Notes: generated by a model not told the origin, from the sequence alone. Numbered from the stretch's first letter, positions 143 to 24,501 are shown. The stretch is 64,000 nucleotides of DNA from Methylovulum sp. (GCF_028687615.1 NZ_JAQTZU010000004.1:4293-68292); one strand, 5' to 3'. Translations and numbers: made by a program.

Positions 143-1357
143 TCAAGCCGGCTCATCCAACAACCAAGCCGGAAAATCATCTTGATAGCTTTCCCAGTGG
201 CTCTTACCTGCCGACAATTCCGCAGCCGTCAACAAACAGGCGTCCAACTCCCGGCACGCCTGATCGACATTGATGTTTTGCCCGATAAACACCAATTCTT
301 GGCGGCAGTCACCATAGGGGGCTTGCCAATTTGCCATGATGTCATCGACGTTTTCTTCAGGCCATTCGTTTTTGGGTACTGATGCCCACCAGCGTCCGGC
401 GCAGCCGTGCTGCATCATGCCGCCGGCTTGTGACCATTGCCCGACCCAATCAGGTCGCGATGCCAACCAGAAAAAACCTTTCGAACGCAATAAAGTGCCG
501 TTATTCCAATCGCCAAAATGCAGGTAATCGTAAAAGCGTTGTGGATGGAAGGGGCGACGGGCGCGGTAGACAAAACTGGCAATACCGTATTCGTCAGTTT
601 CGGGCTGGTGTTCGCCACGCAATTCCTGCAACCAGCCTGGCGCTTGGGCGGCCTTGTCAAAATCAAAACGTCCGGTATTCAGTAGTTTTGCCAGTGGTGC
701 GTTCCCCATCACCATAGGGATAATTTCCGCATCACGGTTAAGGCTAGCCAATAAGGCTTGTAATTCCGCCAAATCAGTGCTGCTCACCAAGTCGGCTTTG
801 GCAATCAGAATCACATTGCTGAATTCAATTTGTTCAACCAACAAATCGGCAATATTGCGCTGGTCATCTTCCCCTGCAACTTCACCGATTTCCGCTAGAA
901 ACGGCGCTTCCAAATATTGCGTCATGAAATTCATCGCATCCACAACGGTGACCATCGTATCGAGCTTGGCAAGGTCGGATAAACTCACGCCAGCGTCATC
1001 ACGGAAGGTGAAGGTTTCGGCAATGGGCAGCGGTTCCGCGATGCCTGTCGATTCAATCAACAAATAATCAAAGCGCCCCGATTTCGCCAGTTCGGTGACT
1101 TCCAGCAACAAATCTTCACGCAATGTGCAGCAAATGCAGCCGTTGCTCATTTCCACCAATTTTTCTTCGGTGCGGTTCAGCACCCTTTCGTTTTTGACTA
1201 AGGCGGCATCAATATTGATTTCGCTCATATCGTTGACGATGACGATGACGGCAATTTTCAGCCCTTCGCGGTTGGCGAGGACTTGGTTTAATAACGTCGT
1301 TTTGCCTGCGCCTAAAAAGCCGGAAAGAACGGTGACGGGTAAGCGGTTTGTGGTCAT
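143..1357 (-). CDS. COG0523-family GTPase metallochaperone (CobW/ZigA/YeiR-like)
   Basis: 404-aa ORF with P-loop [12 protein letters not shown], CxCC metal motif GCICCTL and a CobW-type C-terminal domain. It lies downstream of a TonB receptor that sits behind a Zur-like box. Confidence 0.9.
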
Positions 1358-1872: not shown

Positions 1873-3966
1873 TCAATAATTCACCCTAAGCCCAATCTCC
1901 GCCCCCCTACCCGGTTCCGGCGCAAAATTACGCAAATACGAGGTCGAATTGCGGATATTTTCATCCAGCAAGTTATTGGCTTTGGCAAACACCATCACAT
2001 CCACGTCTTTGATTTGCTTGATGAGGTACTGGGTGCTGAGGTTTAGCTGCACATAACCAGCGGTGGCGGTGTCGAAATCGCCGGGACGGTCTTGGGCTTC
2101 GCCACGGGTCAGCCGCAGGTTGCTGTTCCAATCACCTTTGATATGGTCGAGTTGGAAACCGAAGCGTAACGGTGGCATTCGTGGCACGTCGCCGCCGGCG
2201 ACAAATTGCCCGCGTGTGTAGTCGCTGAACAAAGTCAAATCGACGAGTCCGTAGTGGTTTTCTATGAGCGGGAAAATCAGTTTGCCTTCATAGCCCATAA
2301 ACGTGGCATTGGCTTGGCGGCTTTCGACGACGGGCGAGCAAGGTGTGCCTACGGGGCAAATGCCGCCTTCTTCGGTGACAAACACCCCGCTACGTTGCTG
2401 GTAAATGTAATCGTTGGCCCAGTTGTGGAACAGATCGAATTCCGCGCGAAAGCCGTTGGCGTTGAATTTATAACCCAAATCCAAATTGTACGAAGTTTCT
2501 TCATGCAGCTTGATGTTGCCGATTTCAAAGCTGCGGGTGGCGTCGTGGTAGCCATTGGCGAGCAATTCCTGCACTTGCGGGGCGCGTTGCGAGCGGGTCA
2601 TGGCAAGGTTGACACTGTGATTATCGTTGATTTTCCACAGGCTGGACGCGGATGCGCTGACGGGAACGTAATTCAAATTACTCAAGCCTTCCGGGGCGAT
2701 AGTGGTATCTTCAACCCGAAAACCGAGTTGGTTATTCAGCATTCCGAATTTGAACGATTCGACGGCGAACACACCATAGCTATTGGTAAACGATTGCGGG
2801 ACGATGACGGAATTGCTGGATTTATCTATCGCGGCAAAATCGCTGGCTATGGCTTGGAAGCCTAATGCCCCGTGCAGCCCGGCAATGGGTTTGTGGGTCA
2901 GTTCCAAACGGCTTTCGTAAGTTTTGTTGGTGAAAAACGCGGCTTCTTGCCCATTGGGGATTTCGGTGTGTTGGTAATCGGTGTAGCCCAGTTTCATGCG
3001 TAGCGATTCGGCAAAGGCGAACGGATTTTTCAGTTCGCTTTTCAAATCGTATTTGCTTTGTTTGAGGGCTATGCGGGTGATTTCGCCGCCTGTGCCATCG
3101 GGGGCGATGCCGTAATTGTTTTCCAATCGGTTGATGGACACGCCCGCAAAACCAGGTTCGCCGATTAACGACAGACCTGCCGAACCGCTGATGGCATCGC
3201 TAGAGCTGTTGGCGATAAAGCCATTAGTGTTTTGCAGCGTGTCGGGCAAAGTTGGGTCAACTTGCCGCGCGGCGTTGATGTCTATCGCATTGCCGCCAAT
3301 ATCGACATTGCCCCGGTCACGGAAAAAGCCGTCGATATGGTAGGCGATGTGGTCTTTGCCGCCTTCCAGTTTCATGGTCGTGGCGGTTTCATCAGAGACG
3401 GAATCAAAACGTTGTTCCAACGCACCGACCCACAGGGATGTGGGAAGTGCGGCGGAAGGTCGGGAATCTTCGCCGCCGCCTAGGAGTTTTTCGGGCAGTT
3501 GTTCGGGGATGCGGTTATCGATGACATTGACCACGCCGCCGATTGCACCGCTGCCGTAGAGTAGCGTGGCAGGGCCGCGTAATACTTCAATACGTTCCGC
3601 CAGCAACGGTTCGACGCTGGTGGCATGGTCTGGACTGATCGCGGACACATCGTTACTGCCGATGCCGTTATTCAGAACCCGCACCCGTGGCCCGCTTTGC
3701 CCGCGTATAACCGGTGTGCCAACGCCGGGCCCAAAAGATTGGCTGGTTATGCCGAGTTCGTTTTTCAGAGTTTCGCCGATGCTGTGCCCGACTTTCAAAC
3801 GTAATTCTTCATCGCTTAGGATAGTGACGGGAAGCGTAGTATCGGAAACATTTTCTTGCAGGGGCGCAGTGACGACTATTTGCTCCAGTTCCGTTATAGA
3901 TGAAGTTTCCGCATAGACAGGTGTGCCAAATGCGGATAGACAAAGCATGGCGAGTTTTTTATTCAT
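1873..3966 (-). CDS. TonB-dependent outer-membrane receptor (ZnuD-like candidate)
   Basis: 697-aa ORF with signal peptide MNKKLAMLCLSAFGTPVYA, plug-domain motif IEVLRGPATLLYGSGAIGGVVNVI and a barrel ending in an aromatic residue (RVNY). Confidence 0.9.
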   Translation of the reverse strand: MNKKLAMLCLSAFGTPVYAETSSITELEQIVVTAPLQENVSDTTLPVTILSDEELRLKVGHSIGETLKNELGITSQSFGPGVGTPVIRGQSGPRVRVLNNGIGSNDVSAISPDHATSVEPLLAERIEVLRGPATLLYGSGAIGGVVNVIDNRIPEQLPEKLLGGGEDSRPSAALPTSLWVGALEQRFDSVSDETATTMKLEGGKDHIAYHIDGFFRDRGNVDIGGNAIDINAARQVDPTLPDTLQNTNGFIANSSSDAISGSAGLSLIGEPGFAGVSINRLENNYGIAPDGTGGEITRIALKQSKYDLKSELKNPFAFAESLRMKLGYTDYQHTEIPNGQEAAFFTNKTYESRLELTHKPIAGLHGALGFQAIASDFAAIDKSSNSVIVPQSFTNSYGVFAVESFKFGMLNNQLGFRVEDTTIAPEGLSNLNYVPVSASASSLWKINDNHSVNLAMTRSQRAPQVQELLANGYHDATRSFEIGNIKLHEETSYNLDLGYKFNANGFRAEFDLFHNWANDYIYQQRSGVFVTEEGGICPVGTPCSPVVESRQANATFMGYEGKLIFPLIENHYGLVDLTLFSDYTRGQFVAGGDVPRMPPLRFGFQLDHIKGDWNSNLRLTRGEAQDRPGDFDTATAGYVQLNLSTQYLIKQIKDVDVMVFAKANNLLDENIRNSTSYLRNFAPEPGRGAEIGLRVNY

Positions 3967-14848: not shown

Positions 14849-16405
14849 TCATCTCACCAACAACTCCGGCCCAAACCAATCCACAATGACATGCCGATAA
14901 TGCTCGGCTTTTGCGGTTTGCAGATGTTCAAGCGGGTTGAGATTATCGGTGAGCAAGACGCCATTGCGCTTGTCCACCGGAAACAGCCGTTCTTTCAACC
15001 ACGCGGATTGGCTGCCCAGCAAGGTTTTTGCATCCAAATCTATCGATTGTTTTTGGGTCGCCAAAAAAATGAAATCGTTGAAATCACGTCCGGGTTCGGA
15101 GATGAACACGGATTGTTGTGGAAACACTTCGGCTATGGTTTTAGATACGGCGGCCAAGGCATTGGCGTGTCCACCTTGGGCGAAGGCGACAAAATTCACG
15201 GCGAGTATGCCTTGTTCGGACAGCAAGCCGCGTAATTGCGCGAGGGTTTCCACGGTCAACAAGTGCGATGGTTCCGAACCGCCCGTGAAGCAATCGTGGA
15301 TAATCAGGTCGTAAGGGCCGGACAAATGGCGGATTTCATACCGCGCATCGCCGACGATGGCTTTGCCGGTGGGCTGGTAGCCAAAATAATCGACGGCGGC
15401 ATCGGCAACGGCGGGGTCGATTTCCAAGGTGTCGGTGACGATGTGGTAGCGCTCATGCAGGACTTTTGCCATGTGCCCCGCCCCCAAACCGATGATCAGG
15501 GCACGGTGCATTTTTTGCGGGGCCAAGGCGGGAATCAGGCCGACAATATCCTGATAACTCAAGCGGCTTTGTCCGTTGCTGAGGCTGGACGCGCCGATGG
15601 TTGACGCATCCGAAGTCAACAAACGCAAGTCGCGGGCTTTTTGGTCGATGACCCGCACCCAACCGTACAGACTTTCGCGTTCGGATTGGACCTGGAACTG
15701 GTTGCCGCCTGTATAACCATGCCCTGCACCGATAATTGCTGGCAACAAGGTCAAGCCGATAATGGCAAGGACGATGCTGGGCAGGATGGCGACGGAAACT
15801 TTACGTTTTTTCTGTTCATAAACCGCAATGGCGACCGCCAGCACCAGCAATAAAATCCCCGTACCGATCAAGATTTGCCGCGAACCCAACAAAGGGAACA
15901 AGAAAAATCCCAGCATCAAAGTGCCAACCACGCTGCCGACGGTGCTGACGGCATAAATTGAACCCGCGCTATTGCCGACCCCTGCCAATTGTGACGTTGC
16001 GAGTTTTATCGCAAAAGGCCCGACCATGCCAAGCAAGGTCAAACTGGGCGAAAACAAAATCAACGCGCTGACAAACGCCCCGCCGCGAAGCCCTAGCGGG
16101 TCGGTAGCCAACAGAACCGGTCGGGTCAGCAAGGGGATCAGCAACGTGAAAATAGCCGCCAAGGCGATGATTAGCGATAAACCTGTGCGTTTTGACGTAT
16201 CCGCCCAACGTCCGCCGATAAAATAACCGATGGCGAGGGCGATCATGGTCACGGAAATCAGCGATGACCAGACGTAAAGGCTGGCCCCATAAAACGGCGC
16301 GATCATGCGCGTCCCTAGCAGTTCGATCACCATCACGGACGCGCCGGTGACGAAAACAGTGGCAAAGAGTCCGGTGCGGTGGAACAGTTGGGTGTTATGG
16401 GTCAT
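14849..16405 (-). CDS. Fused polytopic membrane domain / spermidine-synthase-like methyltransferase-fold protein
   Basis: 518-aa ORF with about 7 N-terminal TM segments followed by LIIGLGAGHMAKVL and DLIIHDCFTGG, which fit a spermidine synthase-type fold. Confidence 0.8.
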   Translation of the reverse strand: MTHNTQLFHRTGLFATVFVTGASVMVIELLGTRMIAPFYGASLYVWSSLISVTMIALAIGYFIGGRWADTSKRTGLSLIIALAAIFTLLIPLLTRPVLLATDPLGLRGGAFVSALILFSPSLTLLGMVGPFAIKLATSQLAGVGNSAGSIYAVSTVGSVVGTLMLGFFLFPLLGSRQILIGTGILLLVLAVAIAVYEQKKRKVSVAILPSIVLAIIGLTLLPAIIGAGHGYTGGNQFQVQSERESLYGWVRVIDQKARDLRLLTSDASTIGASSLSNGQSRLSYQDIVGLIPALAPQKMHRALIIGLGAGHMAKVLHERYHIVTDTLEIDPAVADAAVDYFGYQPTGKAIVGDARYEIRHLSGPYDLIIHDCFTGGSEPSHLLTVETLAQLRGLLSEQGILAVNFVAFAQGGHANALAAVSKTIAEVFPQQSVFISEPGRDFNDFIFLATQKQSIDLDAKTLLGSQSAWLKERLFPVDKRNGVLLTDNLNPLEHLQTAKAEHYRHVIVDWFGPELLVR

Positions 16406-16575: not shown

Positions 16576-17475
16576 CTATGCGGCAAACAACGAACCGCCC
16601 GCCCTACCCTCGACATCAAACCAATAATGCGGCAAACCCAGCGAATCCAACCACTCCGGGCCTTGGTCTTCCTTGAGCATGGCGATGGTTGACGCACTGC
16701 CGGCAATCACGCAAAAATCACTGACCACGCTGACCGCCGCCAAATATTTGACAGGCCAGCCGGTTTTCGGATTGAGGATGTGCCCGTAGCGGACACCGTC
16801 AATCAGGATGCAGCGTTCGTAATCCCCGCTACTGGCTAGTGCCCCGTGATGTAATGACACCGTATCGAGCAAGGCATTTTGTTGGCGCGGATGCCGTATG
16901 CCGATACGCCAGGGACTGCCGTCTGTACGCGGGCCGATGATTTTTATGTCGCCGCCGAGATTGACAACGCCATGATTTATGCCTTGCGACCGGCACAAGG
17001 CGGCGGCACGGTCTACGGCGTATTCTTTGACGATGCCGCCAAAATCAATTTCCATCCCGGCCACGGTAAATTCCAGCAGTGGACTTTGCCAGTGGACTTT
17101 GTGCCAACCGATTTTACCAAGCAGGTTTTGTATGGTTTCTTCATCGGGTAGTTTGCCTAGATCAAACCGCCACGCCTGCCGCAAGATACCTGAGGTTATA
17201 TCAAACAAGCCTTCGCTTTGTTCATGGCAAGCCACTGCGTAATCCAACAATCCCCCTGTTTCGGCATCCACTTCGATACTGCCGCCAAGCGCCGCCACAC
17301 GGTTGATCGCCGCTAAAAAACTATCGGGACGATAACGCGAATAACGGATTTCCAAGCGTTGTATGTCGGCAATGGCGGCATCAGCGACTTGCTTGGCTTG
17401 GGTTTGGGTTTTGGCAAATAGCTGAATATCACAAGGTGTGCCCATAGCCTTGAATTCAGCGCGATAAAATTCCAT
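16576..17475 (-). CDS. apbE: FAD:protein FMN transferase (ApbE family), no signal peptide
   Basis: 299-aa ORF that begins directly with the conserved F-x-AMGT core (EFKAMGTPCDIQL). There is no ATG/GTG/TTG further upstream in frame. The start is 5 nt downstream of the preceding gene. Confidence 0.9.
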   Translation of the reverse strand: MEFYRAEFKAMGTPCDIQLFAKTQTQAKQVADAAIADIQRLEIRYSRYRPDSFLAAINRVAALGGSIEVDAETGGLLDYAVACHEQSEGLFDITSGILRQAWRFDLGKLPDEETIQNLLGKIGWHKVHWQSPLLEFTVAGMEIDFGGIVKEYAVDRAAALCRSQGINHGVVNLGGDIKIIGPRTDGSPWRIGIRHPRQQNALLDTVSLHHGALASSGDYERCILIDGVRYGHILNPKTGWPVKYLAAVSVVSDFCVIAGSASTIAMLKEDQGPEWLDSLGLPHYWFDVEGRAGGSLFAA

Positions 17476-17480
17476 GCCAG

Positions 17481-20102
17481 CTAAAACATCACGCTCCAGG
17501 TTGCCGACAACGCCCCTTCCCTTTCCAGTTGATAGCCGTTGACATCGTCTTCAATGGGTTGCAGCCATTCCACTCCTAAACTATTGCCTTTTAAATCACC
17601 CGAAGGGACAGTGAAATTGAGACCTAAACCTAAATCCCAATAACGCCCGCCGTAATTGCCGCCAAAATCCATAGGCCCAGAACTGAAATTGGCTTTTGAT
17701 CCCGGATTGACATTATTGACCAGCACATTGTCGACTACACCCGCCACCCGGTTGAATCTGCCGTCAATTTTGCCCTGCACGGTATAAATGCCCCGGACGG
17801 AAGCGGATAACCAGTTTGTCAAATGGTAATTTCCCCATGCCGTACCCTGAAACATATCGCCCAAGGCATAGCCGGAATCGTTTTTGCTTTCAAGGCGGTT
17901 GGTCGCACTGAATTGCGCCCCCCATGACCAATCATCCAACATACCTGTGTACGTCAAGCTGGGTTTAAAATCCCATGTGCCACTGCCAAGCTGCATACCG
18001 TAATGCAGCAAACCTTTATCATCACCGTGCATGGCTCTGAGTTTGATGTCAACATCCCCGGTAGGCGCACTTAAACCCAAGGTGGCATGGACATGATGAT
18101 TACCTGTGTCAAACAATTTAAACAGCGCGTACATGCCGGTGTCGCCGACCCCGCCAGTGCGATGCCCGCCGTGCAAATGGTCTTGGAAAGCATTGTAGGA
18201 GACACCTTCCAATAAACGTAAATCCATGTCCATGTCCATAAACTGCGGCATGAGCATCAGGTTCAGCCAGTCGGTAGGGGCGTACATGATGTCCAGCATG
18301 TGCATACTCATATCCATATAGGTCGGCGTAACCCGGCAGTGTTTGGTGAAAGCCTGCAAACAACCGTTGTTCCTGATGGTTTGATCCGTAACGGCCTGGA
18401 TGCCGTGTAGCGTATCCCCTGCCTGACGGCTGTACATATATCGGTAACCGAGCATGACATCGTTGGCTTGATCAAGCATGTGCCCAAACATAACACCCGC
18501 CGGGCCGTGGCTGCCGTGGTGCTTGCCATGATGGGCATGGCTATGGCCGGATTGGCTACCGCCCGTGTTTAAAGCGGCAAGATTGACGTTTAAGGCGGCA
18601 TTCGCCAGGTAATAATCAAAATCGCTATAACTGCCTTCGCCACCACCGCCCATTTTTAAAGCACCGGCATGGGTATAGTATTCAAAGCCCGCCTCAATAC
18701 TGACTGCTTTGGATAATTTTTTGTTGATGGTCACGCCGCCGCTTAAGGCACCAAACGCCGACAGACGTTGGTCACTGGAGAAATTGGCGGGCAATGTGCC
18801 GGGGTCGGCGAGGGCTTTGGCATAAGTCTGCTTGGAAATTAAATAAGGGTGATAAAAATCAGCGGCATCTTGGGAGTAATAACGGATTTTTGGTGTTATC
18901 GTCCAGCTTGGGCCGACAGCTTGCACCCAATCCGCTTCAAAGGTGTGGGCGTTGATACCCCAATCATCGTGAAAAAAGCGATAATCAAGATGTAATGCCG
19001 CATCGGCAAAAGCAATGTGCTGGATAAAACGGCTGCCTACCGTCAATTGGTTGCGCTCGTTAGGACGCTGCTCCAGAAATGCCCTGACATCACCGACAAT
19101 GGAATTAGGATGATCTGGGTCCGTACCTAATGTTGCCGGATCGGCAAAGACAATAGTCATCACTTTGTAAGGATTTTCCAAATAACCGGTGCTGCGTGTG
19201 TAAGCAACACTGGTTTGGACTAAAGCACTCTTATTCAACACTTGCGTCAAGCCCAAACTGGTCGCCCAATCTTGGCGGTTGCCGTGCAATATCTGCATAG
19301 TGCCACTTTTTTCAATCTGTTGGGCAAATGCCTTTTTAGTGATGTAGGTTTCAGCATCATGATCCAGGATCGCCGAGTTATCGCTATTGGTATAACTCAA
19401 GCCCATATCCAAGGTCGTGCGTTTTTGGTTAAAATCCAAGCGACCGCTTAAATTACCAAAACGTGATTCATAATCATGTTCCACAGATAGGCCGCCGCCT
19501 ATTTTGATGGCGGCTTCATCCCATTCATAACCCAAAGTGAAATCACCTTGTTTGCGTGTTTCAGGCGAAGCCATCGATAAAACATGCACAGGTTGTGCAG
19601 TTCTAAACAATTTTTTTCCTGGTACGGTTTTATCGTAAATGAGGATCGGGACAAACTTTTGGGTCAAGAACATCCGGGCGTTATTGATATAAGGCGACGC
19701 CCCCGTGATAATTGTTTCATTGTTTGCCGTATTCGCCTTAATCGCACGGTTGCCATTGGCTGCCAATGGTGCCGTGGTAATCGGCGTCGCCCCCGACCAA
19801 GTGTCCTGGATGTAATTAAAAGCAAATTTGATACGGTCAGACAAGCTGACACGCGCTTTCCCCACCACGCTTTCAACTTCGATGGGATTTTTGTTGTTCA
19901 GTACGTTGTATAAATTACGCTTGCCTTCTTCATAATGGCTGTATTGGAAATTGACTTCGTCATCTTCAGCCGCACCCGCCGCAGGCAAAATCAGTCCAGG
20001 TAAGGCCAAAGCCGCAAGCGTCAGGGCTTGAAGCGCAGGATTGGATTTAATAACAGCCACAACCGCCTCCACTGGCAGAACTGCTGGCAGACTCCGCTTC
20101 AC
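17481..20102 (-). CDS. Secreted DUF3570-like protein fused to a second outer-membrane beta-barrel (MetA-pathway/transporter-like), joined by His- and Met-rich tracts
   Basis: 873-aa ORF with a signal-like N-terminus (ALQALTLAALALPGLILPAAGAAE). It contains the DTWSGAT motif, a His-rich tract GHSHAHHGKHHGSHG and a Met-rich tract MDMSMHMLDIM..MLMPQFMDMDMD. The C-terminal barrel carries GVGDTGMY..LGLSAPTGD..LGSGTW and ends in WSVMF. The start is uncertain because it overlaps the upstream gene by 56 nt. Confidence 0.65.
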   Translation of the reverse strand: MKRSLPAVLPVEAVVAVIKSNPALQALTLAALALPGLILPAAGAAEDDEVNFQYSHYEEGKRNLYNVLNNKNPIEVESVVGKARVSLSDRIKFAFNYIQDTWSGATPITTAPLAANGNRAIKANTANNETIITGASPYINNARMFLTQKFVPILIYDKTVPGKKLFRTAQPVHVLSMASPETRKQGDFTLGYEWDEAAIKIGGGLSVEHDYESRFGNLSGRLDFNQKRTTLDMGLSYTNSDNSAILDHDAETYITKKAFAQQIEKSGTMQILHGNRQDWATSLGLTQVLNKSALVQTSVAYTRSTGYLENPYKVMTIVFADPATLGTDPDHPNSIVGDVRAFLEQRPNERNQLTVGSRFIQHIAFADAALHLDYRFFHDDWGINAHTFEADWVQAVGPSWTITPKIRYYSQDAADFYHPYLISKQTYAKALADPGTLPANFSSDQRLSAFGALSGGVTINKKLSKAVSIEAGFEYYTHAGALKMGGGGEGSYSDFDYYLANAALNVNLAALNTGGSQSGHSHAHHGKHHGSHGPAGVMFGHMLDQANDVMLGYRYMYSRQAGDTLHGIQAVTDQTIRNNGCLQAFTKHCRVTPTYMDMSMHMLDIMYAPTDWLNLMLMPQFMDMDMDLRLLEGVSYNAFQDHLHGGHRTGGVGDTGMYALFKLFDTGNHHVHATLGLSAPTGDVDIKLRAMHGDDKGLLHYGMQLGSGTWDFKPSLTYTGMLDDWSWGAQFSATNRLESKNDSGYALGDMFQGTAWGNYHLTNWLSASVRGIYTVQGKIDGRFNRVAGVVDNVLVNNVNPGSKANFSSGPMDFGGNYGGRYWDLGLGLNFTVPSGDLKGNSLGVEWLQPIEDDVNGYQLEREGALSATWSVMF

Positions 20103-20271
20103 GGCTACTGTGCGTATGTTCGCTCAAAGTATCTTGCATGGGGGTAGGCGCAGTCGCCATAGAGGGTTTGGCAAGTATCCCGCGTTGCCAAGGTGATACG
20201 GGGACGCAGGCTGACAGGGTAATGGCCGACACTATCAAGGCCACTAAGGTTGGGCGTGGTTTTGTACTCAT
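20047..20271 (-). CDS. DUF4266-like small lipoprotein
   Basis: 74-aa ORF with lipobox LSAC and the characteristic C-terminal GGGCGCY. Confidence 0.7.
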   Translation of the reverse strand: MSTKPRPTLVALIVSAITLSACVPVSPWQRGILAKPSMATAPTPMQDTLSEHTHSSREAESASSSASGGGCGCY

Positions 20272-20869: not shown

Positions 20870-21370
20870 TTATTGGTTTTGCACGATTTTGACGGCGATA
20901 CCTGTAAGTTTGCCTACGCTGCTATAGCAATTCACATTCATTTTGTAGTTTTCAACACCAACGGCCGTTTTATTGACCCTGACATCGTAGACACCATTGC
21001 CGCTATTGATAGATTTAACATATTTTTTAGTAATGGGATTGTAGATCATGCCAGTAGGTATCGCTGTCGGACTAGGGGCATTAGTGGCGTCCCCATCGAC
21101 AGCGTCTGTGGTGTTTGCCCCAAATACGCCTTTGACAGCTTGCACACTTATGAGAGGGGCGGCAACGGGCAATAAATCCAGCACATTGACTTTCAGATTA
21201 TAGGTATCGCCGTTGGCATTTTTAGAGCAAGTCACCCGGTAATAATCGGTTGTTCCTCTACCAGCCCCAAGAGCACCCGTTACAGAATTTGCCATTGTCG
21301 TATGGGCGTGGGTTACTAGCCCCGTCAACAGGATTGTTGCCAACGTATTTTTTAAGGTTGTTGTGTTCAT
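20870..21370 (-). CDS. Secreted protein of unknown function, paralog A
   Basis: 166-aa ORF with a signal peptide. It shares TG-LGA...DYY-V-C, V-KTAVG--NY----C and a C-terminal NQ with the neighbouring ORF. Two conserved Cys. Confidence 0.6.
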   Translation of the reverse strand: MNTTTLKNTLATILLTGLVTHAHTTMANSVTGALGAGRGTTDYYRVTCSKNANGDTYNLKVNVLDLLPVAAPLISVQAVKGVFGANTTDAVDGDATNAPSPTAIPTGMIYNPITKKYVKSINSGNGVYDVRVNKTAVGVENYKMNVNCYSSVGKLTGIAVKIVQNQ

Positions 21371-21395
21371 AAATTCCTCGACTATTTAATTGGCA

Positions 21396-21881
21396 TTACT
21401 GGTTAATGGTTTGGACTATATCTGTACCGGTATGCCCGCCATCGCTTGCTTCGCAATGGTATTGCAAAGAGTAATTTACTGCTCCAACCGCAGTTTTATC
21501 GACTGCCAGATAAAAAAAGCCATTGCCGCCTTTATAAATGATAGTCGGGCTAAAAGTGGCGTTGCCATTTGCCGCATCGGTGGTATTGGTTGCCGTCGCA
21601 GGCAAGGTGGTGCCGGTATTATCATCCCTGATGACTTGGATACTGAGTTTTGGGATCGTGGTTGAATTATTTCTGACCGCAACATAAATGCGGTTAGTAT
21701 CTCCAGACCCATCGCCAAAGTTGTAACAATGTACTTGATAGTAATCCATCGCGGTACTTGCCGCGCCTAAAGAACCGGTCAAATCATGGGCGAAGGCAAG
21801 GGTTGTTTGCCCTAAAGCCGTTAGCGCCAACAACGTGATCAAAACAGGATGTTTCTTCATTTTTTTCATAAAAGTCCTCAT
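21396..21881 (-). CDS. Secreted protein of unknown function, paralog B (predicted mature N-terminus His)
   Basis: 161-aa ORF. The signal peptide ends AFA followed by HDLTG. It is a paralog of 20870-21370. Confidence 0.6.
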   Translation of the reverse strand: MRTFMKKMKKHPVLITLLALTALGQTTLAFAHDLTGSLGAASTAMDYYQVHCYNFGDGSGDTNRIYVAVRNNSTTIPKLSIQVIRDDNTGTTLPATATNTTDAANGNATFSPTIIYKGGNGFFYLAVDKTAVGAVNYSLQYHCEASDGGHTGTDIVQTINQ

Positions 21882-21993
21882 AATTTAATTATTAGCGGCA
21901 AAGCTGTTCATAGTAGCGTGTTTTTAAGCCGATTGACGCAGATTATTCATCCTTAAATGTGACCATCAATTGTGCTTGTCCACAACCAACATC

Positions 21994-22791
21994 TCATTGG
22001 GTTTTCAGGGCCTCTAATTTGGACGCTGCATATAATCTTACCGTTTCATCGCCATCAACTAGTGCCTGTTGCAACAAATCAGGATGATGACCGGCACTAT
22101 CGACCACCATCAAGCGGACTGAAACGTCCTCATCTTGTAATGCGGATGCCAATCCGTCCGTAGCATCTGCGTCGTCATATTTAGACAAAGCGAACACCGC
22201 TTGCGCCCTGACCTCGGCAGAGGAATCTGATAAAGCCGACACCAAGGTTTTCCTAACTAACGGATCTTTATCGGGTGTTTGCACCGCCAGTGCGCCAATT
22301 GCATCTGCGCGGCTTCCAGGGTCATTAACTTGGGCCATCGCAAGCAATTTCCCCGTATCATTATTATTGGAAGCTTGCATTAAAAGCTTCTTATCCGCCT
22401 TATTTTTTAATGTCCCCTGTTTGCCGTCTTTAGCTGCCCCAAACACCCATATCTCTTCCAACACAGCAGGCTGTGCAGTAGCAGTTGCCTGTGCATAACG
22501 GAAAACCATATCAGCCTGTTTATCCAGCAGGCATTCAAGGAGTTGTTTTATATTTGATCCAGCACAAGCCACTGATACCGGCGCATCCGGCAAACCAGAA
22601 AAATGTATTATGACGCCGGTGTTTTTTGCTAGGGTATCAAGTACCTGTGCTAACGTTTTTTTTGACGCTTCAAGCTTAATCTGTTGGTCAGCATTGCTAT
22701 AAGCGGTCAAGCGGATAGCTTCATCGTCCGCCCTTATTGCCAACGACACTAGCAAACCTACGCATATCACCAAAACTTTGCTTATCAACAC
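21994..22791 (-). CDS. Periplasmic STN-like domain + HEAT-repeat protein
   Basis: 265-aa ORF with a signal peptide. The N-terminal module (LAQVLDTLAKNTGVIIHF...IKQLLECLL) looks like an STN (secretin/TonB N-terminal) domain. The C-terminus has HEAT-like repeats (DPLVRKTLVSALSD, SAEVRAQAVFALSK, DVSVRLMVVDSAG, DETVRLYAASKL). Confidence 0.7.
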   Translation of the reverse strand: MLISKVLVICVGLLVSLAIRADDEAIRLTAYSNADQQIKLEASKKTLAQVLDTLAKNTGVIIHFSGLPDAPVSVACAGSNIKQLLECLLDKQADMVFRYAQATATAQPAVLEEIWVFGAAKDGKQGTLKNKADKKLLMQASNNNDTGKLLAMAQVNDPGSRADAIGALAVQTPDKDPLVRKTLVSALSDSSAEVRAQAVFALSKYDDADATDGLASALQDEDVSVRLMVVDSAGHHPDLLQQALVDGDETVRLYAASKLEALKTQ

Positions 22792-22816
22792 ACCCAGTTA
22801 CCGAGTTTACATAAAT

Positions 22817-22844
22817 GAAAAACCACGAATCCGAAAATTCGTGG
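22817..22844 (-). terminator. Candidate intra-cluster rho-independent terminator/attenuator
   Basis: 8-bp stem CCACGAAT/ATTCGTGG with a 6-nt loop, followed on the minus strand by TTTTT. It lies between the stop at 22989 and the next start at 22791. Confidence 0.45.
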
Positions 22845-22988
22845 TCAAAAGCATAAAACAAGTTATTTATAGTGGCATAGAGGTTGATAACATAAGAATA
22901 ATTATCTAGCTGATACCAATTATTCCACAGCCATAATCAAATAACACACCAGAAGGCCAAAGCGAGGTTTAGTGTTACGTTATGATCT

Positions 22989-23912
22989 CTATCTTCTTGA
23001 AGGCCAATAGTGTTGTGGCGCACCGGCTGGTGCACGGCCACGCGGAATTGGCAAGTTGGCATCAATATCTGCATCCGCAGGCTCGATAGCCAAGTTATAA
23101 CCGTCACCGCAAGCAGGATCAAGTGGATTAGCTACCAAATCACGGCTAATGGTCATTGTAGGCCAGTAGAACAAACCCTTATCCATATCGGCTTGGCTAT
23201 AAGGCATGACTTGCGGATCATTGAATTTAGTTGTCATGTGACCAATCCAGACATCCATCCGGGCAGGATTAGTATCGTTGGCCTTGCCACTTAGACACCA
23301 GTTGGCGGCAGCTACACGCACTTTCAGGCTTTTTGCACAAGAAGTTGATGATTTTATAAAAGCAACTGGGCCAACATTGAACGGGCCATAGACAGAAGTA
23401 CTGGTCACTGATTCCCACATGGGCGCAGACGCATAAGGTATTGGGCCATTATGACTGAAAAAGCCTCTATTTAAAGGCGTGGCATGTTGACCAACCAACG
23501 TGTTTTTATCTATCACGGGAACAAAATTAGGGAAGATATTAGGTTGCACCAAACCCAAACCCAAGTTAATAAAACCTTTGCCTGGTACGACACCGGCAAT
23601 ATCTCCTGATAAATCAGGCAATTCCCCTATTTTAAGCCCAGTTGTCGGATCCAACTTAGTGACTACCGCCATCGCAGGATCTGCGGCATTTGGAAACAGC
23701 ACCGAAGATGCAATGACATCCAAGTGCTTGCCTGAAGTATCTTCATTACCGCTACAGCCATGAGTAATATTGAGTGCATTAAAAGACAGTTGGTTTTCCA
23801 CAACGGCATTTCTGATACCCGTGTGCGCCAGTACGTTTTGGGCGGCAACCGAAACCAATATTGCGCCTGAAATCAGTGCCAGTTTTTTCGCCAGTGTTTG
23901 TTTTTTCATCAA
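22989..23912 (-). CDS. Secreted YcnI/DUF1775-like protein (predicted mature N-terminal His), extended C-terminal region
   Basis: 307-aa ORF. The signal peptide ends NVLA followed by HTGIRN. An H-x20-THGC-SG module resembles the proteobacterial YcnI pattern (N-terminal H ... PHGC-G). Assignment is by motif only. Confidence 0.55.
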   Translation of the reverse strand: MMKKQTLAKKLALISGAILVSVAAQNVLAHTGIRNAVVENQLSFNALNITHGCSGNEDTSGKHLDVIASSVLFPNAADPAMAVVTKLDPTTGLKIGELPDLSGDIAGVVPGKGFINLGLGLVQPNIFPNFVPVIDKNTLVGQHATPLNRGFFSHNGPIPYASAPMWESVTSTSVYGPFNVGPVAFIKSSTSCAKSLKVRVAAANWCLSGKANDTNPARMDVWIGHMTTKFNDPQVMPYSQADMDKGLFYWPTMTISRDLVANPLDPACGDGYNLAIEPADADIDANLPIPRGRAPAGAPQHYWPSRR

Positions 23913-24010: not shown

Positions 24011-24405
24011 CTTTCTTATATAAAGATTTCAAACTAATATGAATAGCAACACATTGAATTATATATTTTAAAAATTTTATTCAAGAAAAAATAACTTATA
24101 AAAAGCAGGGGATTACCATCTTTTTGGAACCCATTCCCTTCCTTAAAATTAACGGAGAAATGCCTGAAACCGCCGCTTTAAAAGAAAAACGTGTGAAATG
24201 CCGCAGATTTATTTTTTTGGCTTTAATTAAGCCTATGTTTTTATTAAATATAATAGAAACAGCGTCAAATGACACAATTAAATACGTTAAATAACATAGT
24301 TTAATTATATTTATAACGACGTGTTGGTATCCAGCTTCCATCTAACAACCGTGTTCCATTGCCCGGTTCGCCCAACTGACAACGCCATTACCGTTAAGCC
24401 AAAAC

Positions 24406-24446
24406 AAAAAAGGCCGGAAACACAAATTCTCTTTGTATTTCCGGCC
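24406..24446 (-). terminator. secA rho-independent terminator
   Basis: 14-bp stem with one mismatch (24412-24426 / 24432-24446) and a 5-nt loop, followed on the minus strand by a T6 run. It lies 56 nt after the secA stop. Confidence 0.7.
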
Positions 24447-24501
24447 CTTGAGCTGACTAAATGGCTACCTACCTGCCATAGCCCATCATTGTAATGATAA
24501 A

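Follow-up and report, generated by a model that had tools for sequence, protein, structure and literature searches.

Two secreted protein families with candidate N-terminal histidine metal sites accompany a predicted flavinylated outer-membrane protein in a conserved gene cluster of Methylovulum and other proteobacteria

We analysed a stretch of 64,000 nucleotides from Methylovulum sp. (GCF_028687615.1, NZ_JAQTZU010000004.1:4293-68292; hereafter the window), which contains nine minus-strand genes downstream of a strong terminator after secA. The focus lies on three of these genes, which encode a secreted protein of 307 aa, here called BIG, and two small paralogous proteins, here called SMALL-A and SMALL-B. 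A preliminary description made from the sequence alone had reported their open reading frames (ORFs) and several sequence motifs, all of which are correct, and had considered a methanotroph as a possible host. Indeed, the host is a methanotroph, and BIG is 100% identical to a "hypothetical protein" deposited with a Methylovulum metagenome-assembled genome (MAG). The cluster comprises the following features.

24409-24449 (-): strong terminator after secA with an 18-bp stem, the upstream boundary of the cluster
22989-23912 (-): BIG, a secreted, remotely YcnI/DUF1775-like protein of 307 aa (probably 306 aa, with an ATG at 23909)
22821-22846 (-): terminator-like hairpin between BIG and the HEAT gene, with an 11-bp stem and a T-run, from a consensus scan alone
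21994-22791 (-): secreted HEAT-repeat protein of 265 aa (Pfam)
21396-21881 (-): SMALL-B (paralog B), predicted jelly-roll protein of 161 aa (157 aa as deposited)
20870-21370 (-): SMALL-A (paralog A), a second, His-less copy of 166 aa
20287-20790 (-): TlpA/ResA-type periplasmic thiol-disulfide oxidoreductase with a WCGPC motif (Pfam/NCBIfam)
20047-20271 (-): DUF4266 lipoprotein of 74 aa with the C-terminus GGGCGCY, i.e. a CXC motif (PF14086, E 1.1e-17)
17481-20102 (-): outer-membrane protein (OMP) of 873 aa, DUF3570 plus a PF13557-like barrel (PF12094, E 1.1e-120)
16576-17475 (-): ApbE-family flavin mononucleotide transferase without a signal peptide (Pfam/NCBIfam)
14849-16405 (-): fused major facilitator superfamily (MFS)/spermidine-synthase-like membrane protein (NCBIfam scan)

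BIG did not match any model in Pfam-A or NCBIfam, even at E 10, nor any PDB entry in sequence and profile searches. A word-indexed search returned 75 relatives, all named ones of which belong to the Methylococcales, and an exhaustive profile search gave a family of 286 clusters at 50% identity. The Ala-His pair at positions -1 and +1 is invariant in an alignment of 35 sequences. Among the 203 members that cover the N-terminus, on which all residue counts for this family are based, Ala29 is conserved in 186, His30 in 187, His51 in 190 and Cys53 in 200, followed in the later part by Cys192 (199), Cys206 (198), Trp222 (189) and Cys268 (184). At a median position of 28, the conserved His follows a basic n-region and a hydrophobic core; since this placement is typical of a signal region with n, h and c parts, signal peptidase I is predicted to cleave between Ala and His, with His30 as residue +1. 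The candidate elements of the mature protein are therefore its N-terminal His1 (His30), His22-Gly-Cys24 (H51-G52-C53), C192, C206, W222 and C268. The two His residues co-vary, with both present in 186 members, both absent in 12, and His30 or His51 found alone in 1 and 4, respectively. From this we conclude that chance is excluded for the predicted N-terminal His, by its conservation and co-variation in the family and not by a statistic on the single sequence.

The AlphaFold2 model of BIG (predicted local distance difference test, pLDDT, 78; predicted template-modelling score, pTM, 0.81) was compared with known structures using Foldseek, and the best match by probability and by target-normalised template-modelling (TM) score was YcnI of Bacillus subtilis (7me6_B, probability 0.95, TM 0.56), with a second YcnI structure (8um6_B) at a probability of 0.89 and a TM of 0.55. 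When the 203-sequence alignment was compared with DUF1775 by hhalign, a probability of 74% was obtained (P 2.7e-5, 41 columns), with the H1...HGC...FP elements aligned, and the SMALL family, used as a control against the same DUF1775 set, reached 0.2%. In the relaxed hhalign alignment alone, Cys206 and Trp222 of BIG also fall on the Cys and Trp of DUF1775. The comparison set consisted of true DUF1775/YcnI genes taken from plasmids, which adjoin CopD, CopC/CopD, PCuAC and pseudoazurin genes. Proteobacterial members follow the pattern H1-(21 aa)-HGC...QxC...W and thus share with BIG the first His, the HGC motif, another Cys and a conserved Trp, all in the same order, whereas the Glu-type proteins of B. 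subtilis and actinomycetes lack both Cys.

In YcnI, a single Cu(II) is held by the N-terminal His, with both its amine and its imidazole, by Glu50 and by an adjacent Trp, and proteobacterial members of the family, which lack the Glu, "may use a different ligand set" (PMC8424229). Because the His of HGC lies one residue ahead of the YcnI Glu position, in BIG as well as in proteobacterial DUF1775, and co-varies with His1, a two-His brace appears to be the most economical reading for BIG, with this His as a candidate ligand. The conserved Trp222 would correspond to Trp137 near the metal site of B. subtilis YcnI. Like this protein and PcuD of Bradyrhizobium, BIG is predicted to be a Sec-exported beta-sandwich with a mature N-terminal His. 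It differs from YcnI/DUF1775 in its size of about 250-280 mature residues compared to about 130, due to large insertions, in two additional conserved Cys, and in its partners, which are SMALL and a DUF3570 module instead of CopCD/PCuAC; apart from a weak CopC domain in one locus, neither the window nor the retrieved related loci (L001-L034, L045, L046) showed CopC, CopD or PCuAC neighbours of BIG. As judged from the profile comparison and the predicted fold, we conclude that BIG is probably a remote relative of YcnI in its proteobacterial HGC subtype, enlarged about two-fold; by the Pfam criterion, it is not a member.

SMALL-A and SMALL-B are true paralogs (32% identity, E 8e-17) of a family of about 50-60 clusters, which has no match in Pfam-A or NCBIfam; a sub-threshold Kre9_KNH match for paralog B was not used. 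The model of SMALL-B (pLDDT 86) is a jelly-roll sandwich, which in Foldseek is best matched by YPM, the mitogen of Yersinia (E 3.7e-5), a C2-like domain of calpain-7 and collagen-binding/PPC domains of collagenases. As modelled, the fold is not that of cupredoxins, Ig-like lytic polysaccharide monooxygenases (LPMOs), CopC or YcnI, and the likeness to PPC/collagen-binding jelly rolls would hold at the level of the fold only.

The Ala at position -1 is invariant in the SMALL family (63/63), and the next residue is His in 34 of the 63 members. This His belongs to a triad that is essentially kept or lost as a whole: 34 members have all three His, 27 have none and 2 lack the first His alone. In SMALL-B, which also has the Cys52/Cys143 pair, the triad consists of His32 (mature His1), His142 (His111, directly before the invariant Cys143) and His150 (His119, within HTG). 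On a neighbour-joining tree calculated with the triad columns left out, parsimony requires that the complete triad was lost independently at least five times, starting from an ancestor that had it. Since the three His are kept or lost together, they are best explained as parts of one site. SMALL-A represents the empty type, with A|NSVTG, NC and LTG at the respective positions and none of the triad His. A mature N-terminal His combined with further His, as predicted for BIG and SMALL-B, is also found in the histidine-brace sites of LPMOs, CopC, the PCuAC protein PmoF1 and, at its CuB site, particulate methane monooxygenase (pMMO); the candidate site of BIG (His1 and one His) would mirror the canonical brace and that of SMALL (His1 and two His) the pMMO CuB ligand set. 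SMALL differs from the known brace proteins by its jelly-roll fold and has no sequence relationship to them. Based on these family-wide patterns, BIG and SMALL-B are likely to be extracytoplasmic metal (copper) binders using an N-terminal His.

The preliminary description had proposed that all three proteins mature with an N-terminal His, which stands for BIG and for SMALL-B together with the His-bearing half of its family, and is not supported as a conserved feature for SMALL-A. In the latter, the preferred site THA|HTT lies off the family cleavage column and its HAH varies in orthologs (HAS, HTD and others), while the alternative TMA|NSV aligns with the invariant Ala column. The YcnI-like nature suggested for the 307-aa protein is supported by the structure and profile comparisons above, and so is the impression that the small paralogs belong to no recognised family. 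The resemblance seen between the large and the small proteins, a His-Cys element about 20 residues after the N-terminus, turned out to be superficial: the residue before this Cys is His in just 13 of the 63 SMALL members, and distant homology of BIG and SMALL was rejected at an hhalign probability of 0.2%. An Ig/cupredoxin-like fold of the small proteins is not what the model gives.

Two further aspects of the SMALL proteins were considered. By inspection, their TGSLGA/TGALGA stretches lack the [ST]GA[ST] acceptor, and an ApbE flavinylation site was rejected. In addition, the distant family member P0122 carries an IPTL-CTERM-like tail (residues 164-190) that scores 19.5 bits against a cut-off of 20.5; beyond this, neither JDVT-CTERM nor other sorting tails were found on family members. 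According to a preprint, JDVT-CTERM proteins adjoin DUF4266/DUF3570/TlpA in some genera, and surface anchoring of SMALL relatives is possible.

The genomic association of both families was investigated in 28 genome loci obtained with the BIG profile and in loci from exact-protein look-up, using hidden Markov models of both families and of the other window proteins. SMALL lies beside BIG in 26 of the 30 informative loci, across gamma-, beta- and deltaproteobacteria, including the betaproteobacteria Chitinimonas, Thiobacillus denitrificans and Aquabacterium, and in a deltaproteobacterial MAG the two genes occur alone, without the rest of the cluster. Moreover, SMALL and BIG are fused in nine representative clusters (P0139, P0146, P0165, P0173, P0188, P0196, P0204, P0217, P0228), one of which (P0228) has a PPC domain between the two halves. 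Of the 9 fusions, 8 have lost His30 as well as His51 from their internal BIG half, and 6 have kept the triad in the N-terminal SMALL half. In L046, the gene of one fusion (1464-2675) is flanked by a separate, His-bearing BIG on one side and a SMALL without the His on the other, and TlpA-DUF4266-DUF3570 follows downstream. Every locus has at least one His-bearing copy of each family; where SMALL is present, the first copy always bears the triad, and the His-less copies are extra.

In the Methylococcales, the gene order is BIG-(HEAT)-SMALL (1-3 copies)-TlpA-DUF4266-DUF3570::barrel-ApbE-MFS/spermidine synthase with differing flanks, and in betaproteobacteria, whose clusters lack the HEAT gene found in Methylococcales, it is BIG-SMALL-DUF4266-DUF3570::barrel-ApbE. 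The neighbourhood survey thus bears out the conservation of the cluster as a unit, including a betaproteobacterial version. Carriers available in culture are Methylovulum miyakonense HT12, M. psychrotolerans Sph1 and Methylocucumis oryzae Sn10-6. Several loci show individual peculiarities. The complete cluster of L045 (1787-11471), preceded by glnE as in the window, has HEAT and SMALL genes that look frameshifted and BIG in two pieces on the opposite strand, possibly reflecting long-read errors or decay. In Methylococcaceae UBA6146, the cluster is closely followed downstream by a filamentous-phage replication gene (Phage_CRI/G2P; L001, 19144-20190), and L044 (3409-14906) contains three or four tandem DUF3570::barrel paralogs with DUF4266, broken by insertion sequence transposases and a group II intron reverse transcriptase.

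The 873-aa OMP consists of DUF3570 (residues 25-498), a His-rich linker and a C-terminal barrel domain of about 340 residues. DUF3570 is flavinylated by ApbE at two [S/T]GA[S/T] motifs, and recurrent clusters of ApbE, DUF3570, a thioredoxin-like protein and DUF4266, often with DsbD, have been described, with a function called "uncertain" (PMC8238504). Both motifs are present in the window protein as WSGATP and ITGASP, and QDTWSGATP was found in 25 of 25 cluster OMPs examined. The window contains the complete set of four components of these published clusters (Meheust et al. 2021, eLife) in synteny, with the CXC-bearing DUF4266, TlpA and ApbE co-located with DUF3570. The window differs from them by the fusion of DUF3570 to a Met/His-rich PF13557-like barrel, by the addition of BIG, SMALL and HEAT, by an ApbE without a signal peptide and by the lack of DsbD, which was not detected among the cluster genes scanned with Pfam/NCBIfam.

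Invariant Met number more than 11 in the C-terminal domain of the OMP (17481-18560, minus strand), which also has several clusters of His and a pair of Cys; these features are conserved from gamma- to betaproteobacterial loci, and the Met motifs include PAGVMFxHM, MDMxMHMLDIMY and LMLMPQFMDMxM. The domain belongs to a family of more than 876 proteins, which also includes standalone barrels and whose members often match PF13557; the window domain itself does not match this model, and many close homologs (49-62% identity) and a standalone protein of Nitrospina do. The latter (L028, 11014-12171) carries a CCAHCGG motif. Apart from a Csp-adjacent cluster, the contexts of standalone PF13557-like barrels gave no consistent copper signal. 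Like PcoB/CopB and PF13557 barrels, the window OMP is an outer-membrane beta-barrel that ends in Phe and has MxM and His motifs; unlike PcoB/CopB, it is covalently fused to a flavoprotein domain and encoded outside a pco/cop resistance operon. The preliminary description had recognised a Met/His-rich outer-membrane protein and missed that it is a DUF3570 flavinylation substrate fused to a PF13557-like barrel. What goes beyond that description is that DUF4266 and ApbE complete the published flavin/thioredoxin module and that the BIG-SMALL pair also occurs as a fusion.

To narrow down the metal and its direction, we considered the genes around BIG. In one Methylococcaceae lineage (L004), corA (PF18252) and a MauG-like gene lie directly beside BIG, and in L045 a Csp copper-storage gene (PF03860) directly follows the cluster. 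In Methylomirabilota, BIG is flanked by a TonB receptor and SMBP, whereas in Methylomagnum the flanking genes encode an extracytoplasmic function (ECF) sigma factor, FecR and PepSY_TM. A DUF2946-like gene, near the threshold and below the cut-off, is located upstream in Aquabacterium, a weak CopC domain was found in one further locus, and MauG-like di-haem peroxidases are encoded nearby in two lineages. The hosts of BIG are mainly methanotrophs, including Methylomirabilota and Methylomagnum, as well as Nitrospina and Thiobacillus. CopA, CusCBA, multicopper oxidases and CopRS/CueR were not found in any locus examined, and the recurring neighbours are acquisition or storage genes and not efflux or resistance genes. 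CorA/MopE-CorB of the Methylococcales resemble BIG and SMALL in being secreted and in occurring in the same bacterial order, with corA and corB beside BIG in one lineage; they share no homology with them, and their kynurenine-containing site is made by a MauG-like partner, of which the window has none.

Additional features of the window are the following. Promoter-like sites were found by consensus scan at 24074-24333, and the hairpin at 22821-22846 may act as an attenuator that sets the level of BIG's own expression; an Rfam search of the 14-25 kb region gave no match. Between TlpA and the OMP, the DUF4266 ORF (20047-20271) shares 56 nt with the OMP gene as called from its GTG start, and for this reason the true OMP start is probably further downstream. 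An STN domain, which the preliminary description had assigned to the HEAT protein, was not detected by Pfam. The MFS/spermidine-synthase-like protein (14849-16405) is the last conserved cluster gene, in Methylococcales alone, and carries the tetrapeptide TGAS within the first of its membrane segments. Farther away, a CobW/COG0523 metallochaperone GTPase (143-1357, minus strand) adjoins a TonB-dependent receptor (1873-3966, minus strand), a pairing typical of metal-limitation regulons, often for zinc. Two long ORFs lack a Pfam match at 1e-5 (34612-35823, minus strand, 403 aa, and 57537-59252, minus strand, 571 aa).

Taken together, we propose that the cluster serves the handling of a metal in the envelope and is linked to redox chemistry; the metal is most probably copper and the purpose most probably acquisition. 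To this reading we assign a probability of about 0.5. What the analysis shows is family conservation, ligand co-variation, fold similarity, the pairing and fusion of BIG and SMALL, synteny and the flavinylation motifs. In the proposed scheme, signal-peptide cleavage of Sec-exported BIG would expose His1, whose free amine, together with His22 of HGC, could form a histidine-brace-type Cu(II) site backed by the conserved Trp, and in SMALL-B another site of the N-terminal-His kind may be made up of His1, His111 and His119, a ligand set like that of pMMO CuB, the geometry being putative in both cases. BIG and SMALL would interact physically, with SMALL-A as a ligand-less accessory subunit, and the partners of the pair would be the flavinylated DUF3570 OMP with its Met/His-lined barrel, the CXC lipoprotein DUF4266, TlpA and ApbE. 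Cu(II) would be captured on the His sites and possibly exchanged between BIG and SMALL-B, as YcnI exchanges Cu(II) with the CopC domain of YcnJ (PMC12362106). Along a presumed path, electrons from the thiols of TlpA/DUF4266 could reach the DUF3570 flavin and reduce Cu(II), and Cu(I) might then pass along the Met-rich barrel, presumably inwards. Such a scheme would be the bacterial counterpart of copper uptake by a reductase and a Met channel. The reductive-uptake mechanism as such is tentative, with the odds somewhat against it, and the more specific picture of a flavin-driven outer-membrane machine for reductive copper uptake, built from DUF3570/DUF4266/ApbE and the Met-lined barrel and fed by two new N-terminal-His families, one with a pMMO-CuB-like His3 site on a jelly-roll fold, is doubtful.

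Several observations weigh against this interpretation. The Foldseek E-values for YcnI are weak, at about 0.01 (7me6_B, E 0.011, root-mean-square deviation 8.5), PF07987 (DUF1775) does not match BIG at E up to 10, and with the shallow 35-sequence alignment hhalign gave 11.6%. The jelly-roll fold of SMALL has no known precedent as a histidine-brace scaffold. The ApbE ORF starts about 8 residues before the MGT motif, without a signal peptide or lipobox, in the window and in all Methylococcales loci (L001, L007-L009, L012, L013, L016, L017, L019, L033), which fits periplasmic flavinylation poorly because an exported substrate calls for an extracytosolic ApbE. Copper as the metal is pointed to indirectly, by the N-terminal His, the relationship to YcnI, the barrel with its many MxM motifs, the range of hosts and the neighbours; each copper-linked neighbour stems from a single lineage, some matches (DUF2946) are below the cut-off, and the window cluster contains no CopC/CopD/PCuAC, copper regulator or copper ATPase. 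Finally, some published DUF3570 clusters are tied to iron and not to copper, 25 of them containing the VIT1 transporter (PMC8238504), and this link as well as the FecR/PepSY_TM/TonB context would also fit iron.

The main rival explanation is that BIG and/or SMALL are copper redox enzymes or electron-transfer proteins, for which flavinylated DUF3570 serves as a dedicated reductant via TlpA/DUF4266. This would parallel NosR for NosZ and the reductases of LPMOs, and histidine-brace sites do support oxygenase and peroxygenase chemistry; an electron-transfer role of YcnI-type sites has been raised as a possibility, although characterised proteins of the YcnI/CopC/PCuAC type lack convincing catalysis (PMC10952591). 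The tight linkage to a flavin electron-transfer module across bacterial classes calls for a redox explanation, and both the resemblance of the three-His set of SMALL to pMMO CuB and the MauG-like peroxidases in two lineages would fit. However, no substrate-binding feature or candidate substrate is evident, and the Met-lined barrel and the TonB, ECF and SMBP contexts point to metal traffic, so that we regard this explanation as unlikely. A module for another metal (Fe, Ni or Zn), which the N-terminal-His sites and the His-rich linker of the OMP would bind, with the flavin used for instance in Fe(III) reduction, is quite unlikely as well. It draws on the DUF3570-VIT1 clusters and the general tie of flavinylation to iron reduction (PMC8238504), on loci with BIG alone, whose neighbours FecR/ECF/PepSY_TM and TonB receptors are classic iron systems, and on the COG0523/TonB receptor pair of the window, and His-rich stretches bind Ni and Zn too. 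Against this, chelation by the amine and imidazole of an N-terminal His is to date a motif of copper, YcnI as the closest relative by structure binds Cu(II), MxM arrays with eleven invariant Met are a signature of Cu(I)/Ag(I) and not of Fe or Zn, and the corA, Csp, SMBP and DUF2946 neighbours are copper-linked.

If the metal is copper, the module might instead detoxify or export it, akin to PcoB/CopB with periplasmic carriers, given that Met/His-rich outer-membrane barrels and periplasmic copper carriers also mark resistance systems and that a role of YcnI in sequestering Cu(II) and restricting its entry has been proposed (PMC12362106). The absence of CopA/CusCBA, multicopper oxidase and CopRS/CueR genes from the loci examined, the acquisition and storage genes among the recurring neighbours and the high copper demand of the hosts make this improbable. 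The retention of His-less SMALL-A and of fusion BIG halves implies that the folds have a ligand-independent role, and BIG and SMALL could accordingly be non-metal envelope proteins, such as scaffolds or chaperones for the DUF3570 barrel, with structural or fortuitous His. Unless they share a site, it is difficult to account for the all-or-none co-variation of three His in SMALL and two in BIG over losses that recurred independently, and each locus retains at least one His-bearing copy, which renders this explanation highly improbable. Redox-linked copper acquisition remains our preferred reading.

Neither BIG nor SMALL is represented by a Pfam-A or NCBIfam model, and deposited copies are named "hypothetical protein". 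In a full-text search, the literature naming DUF3570 or DUF4266 consisted of the flavinylation paper and the sorting-signal preprint, neither of which ties them to copper or to BIG/SMALL. YcnI-type N-terminal-His proteins and the DUF3570 flavinylation module are already known; confirmation of the reading at the level of the whole system would bring something substantially new. Copper supply limits pMMO, and the envelope copper route in gammaproteobacterial methanotrophs without methanobactin is a gap for which the locus offers candidates: two uncurated families with candidate ligands in each, linked by gene pairing and fusion and tied to covalent flavinylation. If true, the proposed module would explain the copper intake of methanobactin-less Methylococcales and of some nitrifier and denitrifier relatives. 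It would also assign a function to the DUF3570 flavinylation system, with a first functional context for DUF3570/DUF4266, and would add the jelly roll as a new fold to the few that carry histidine-brace-type sites.

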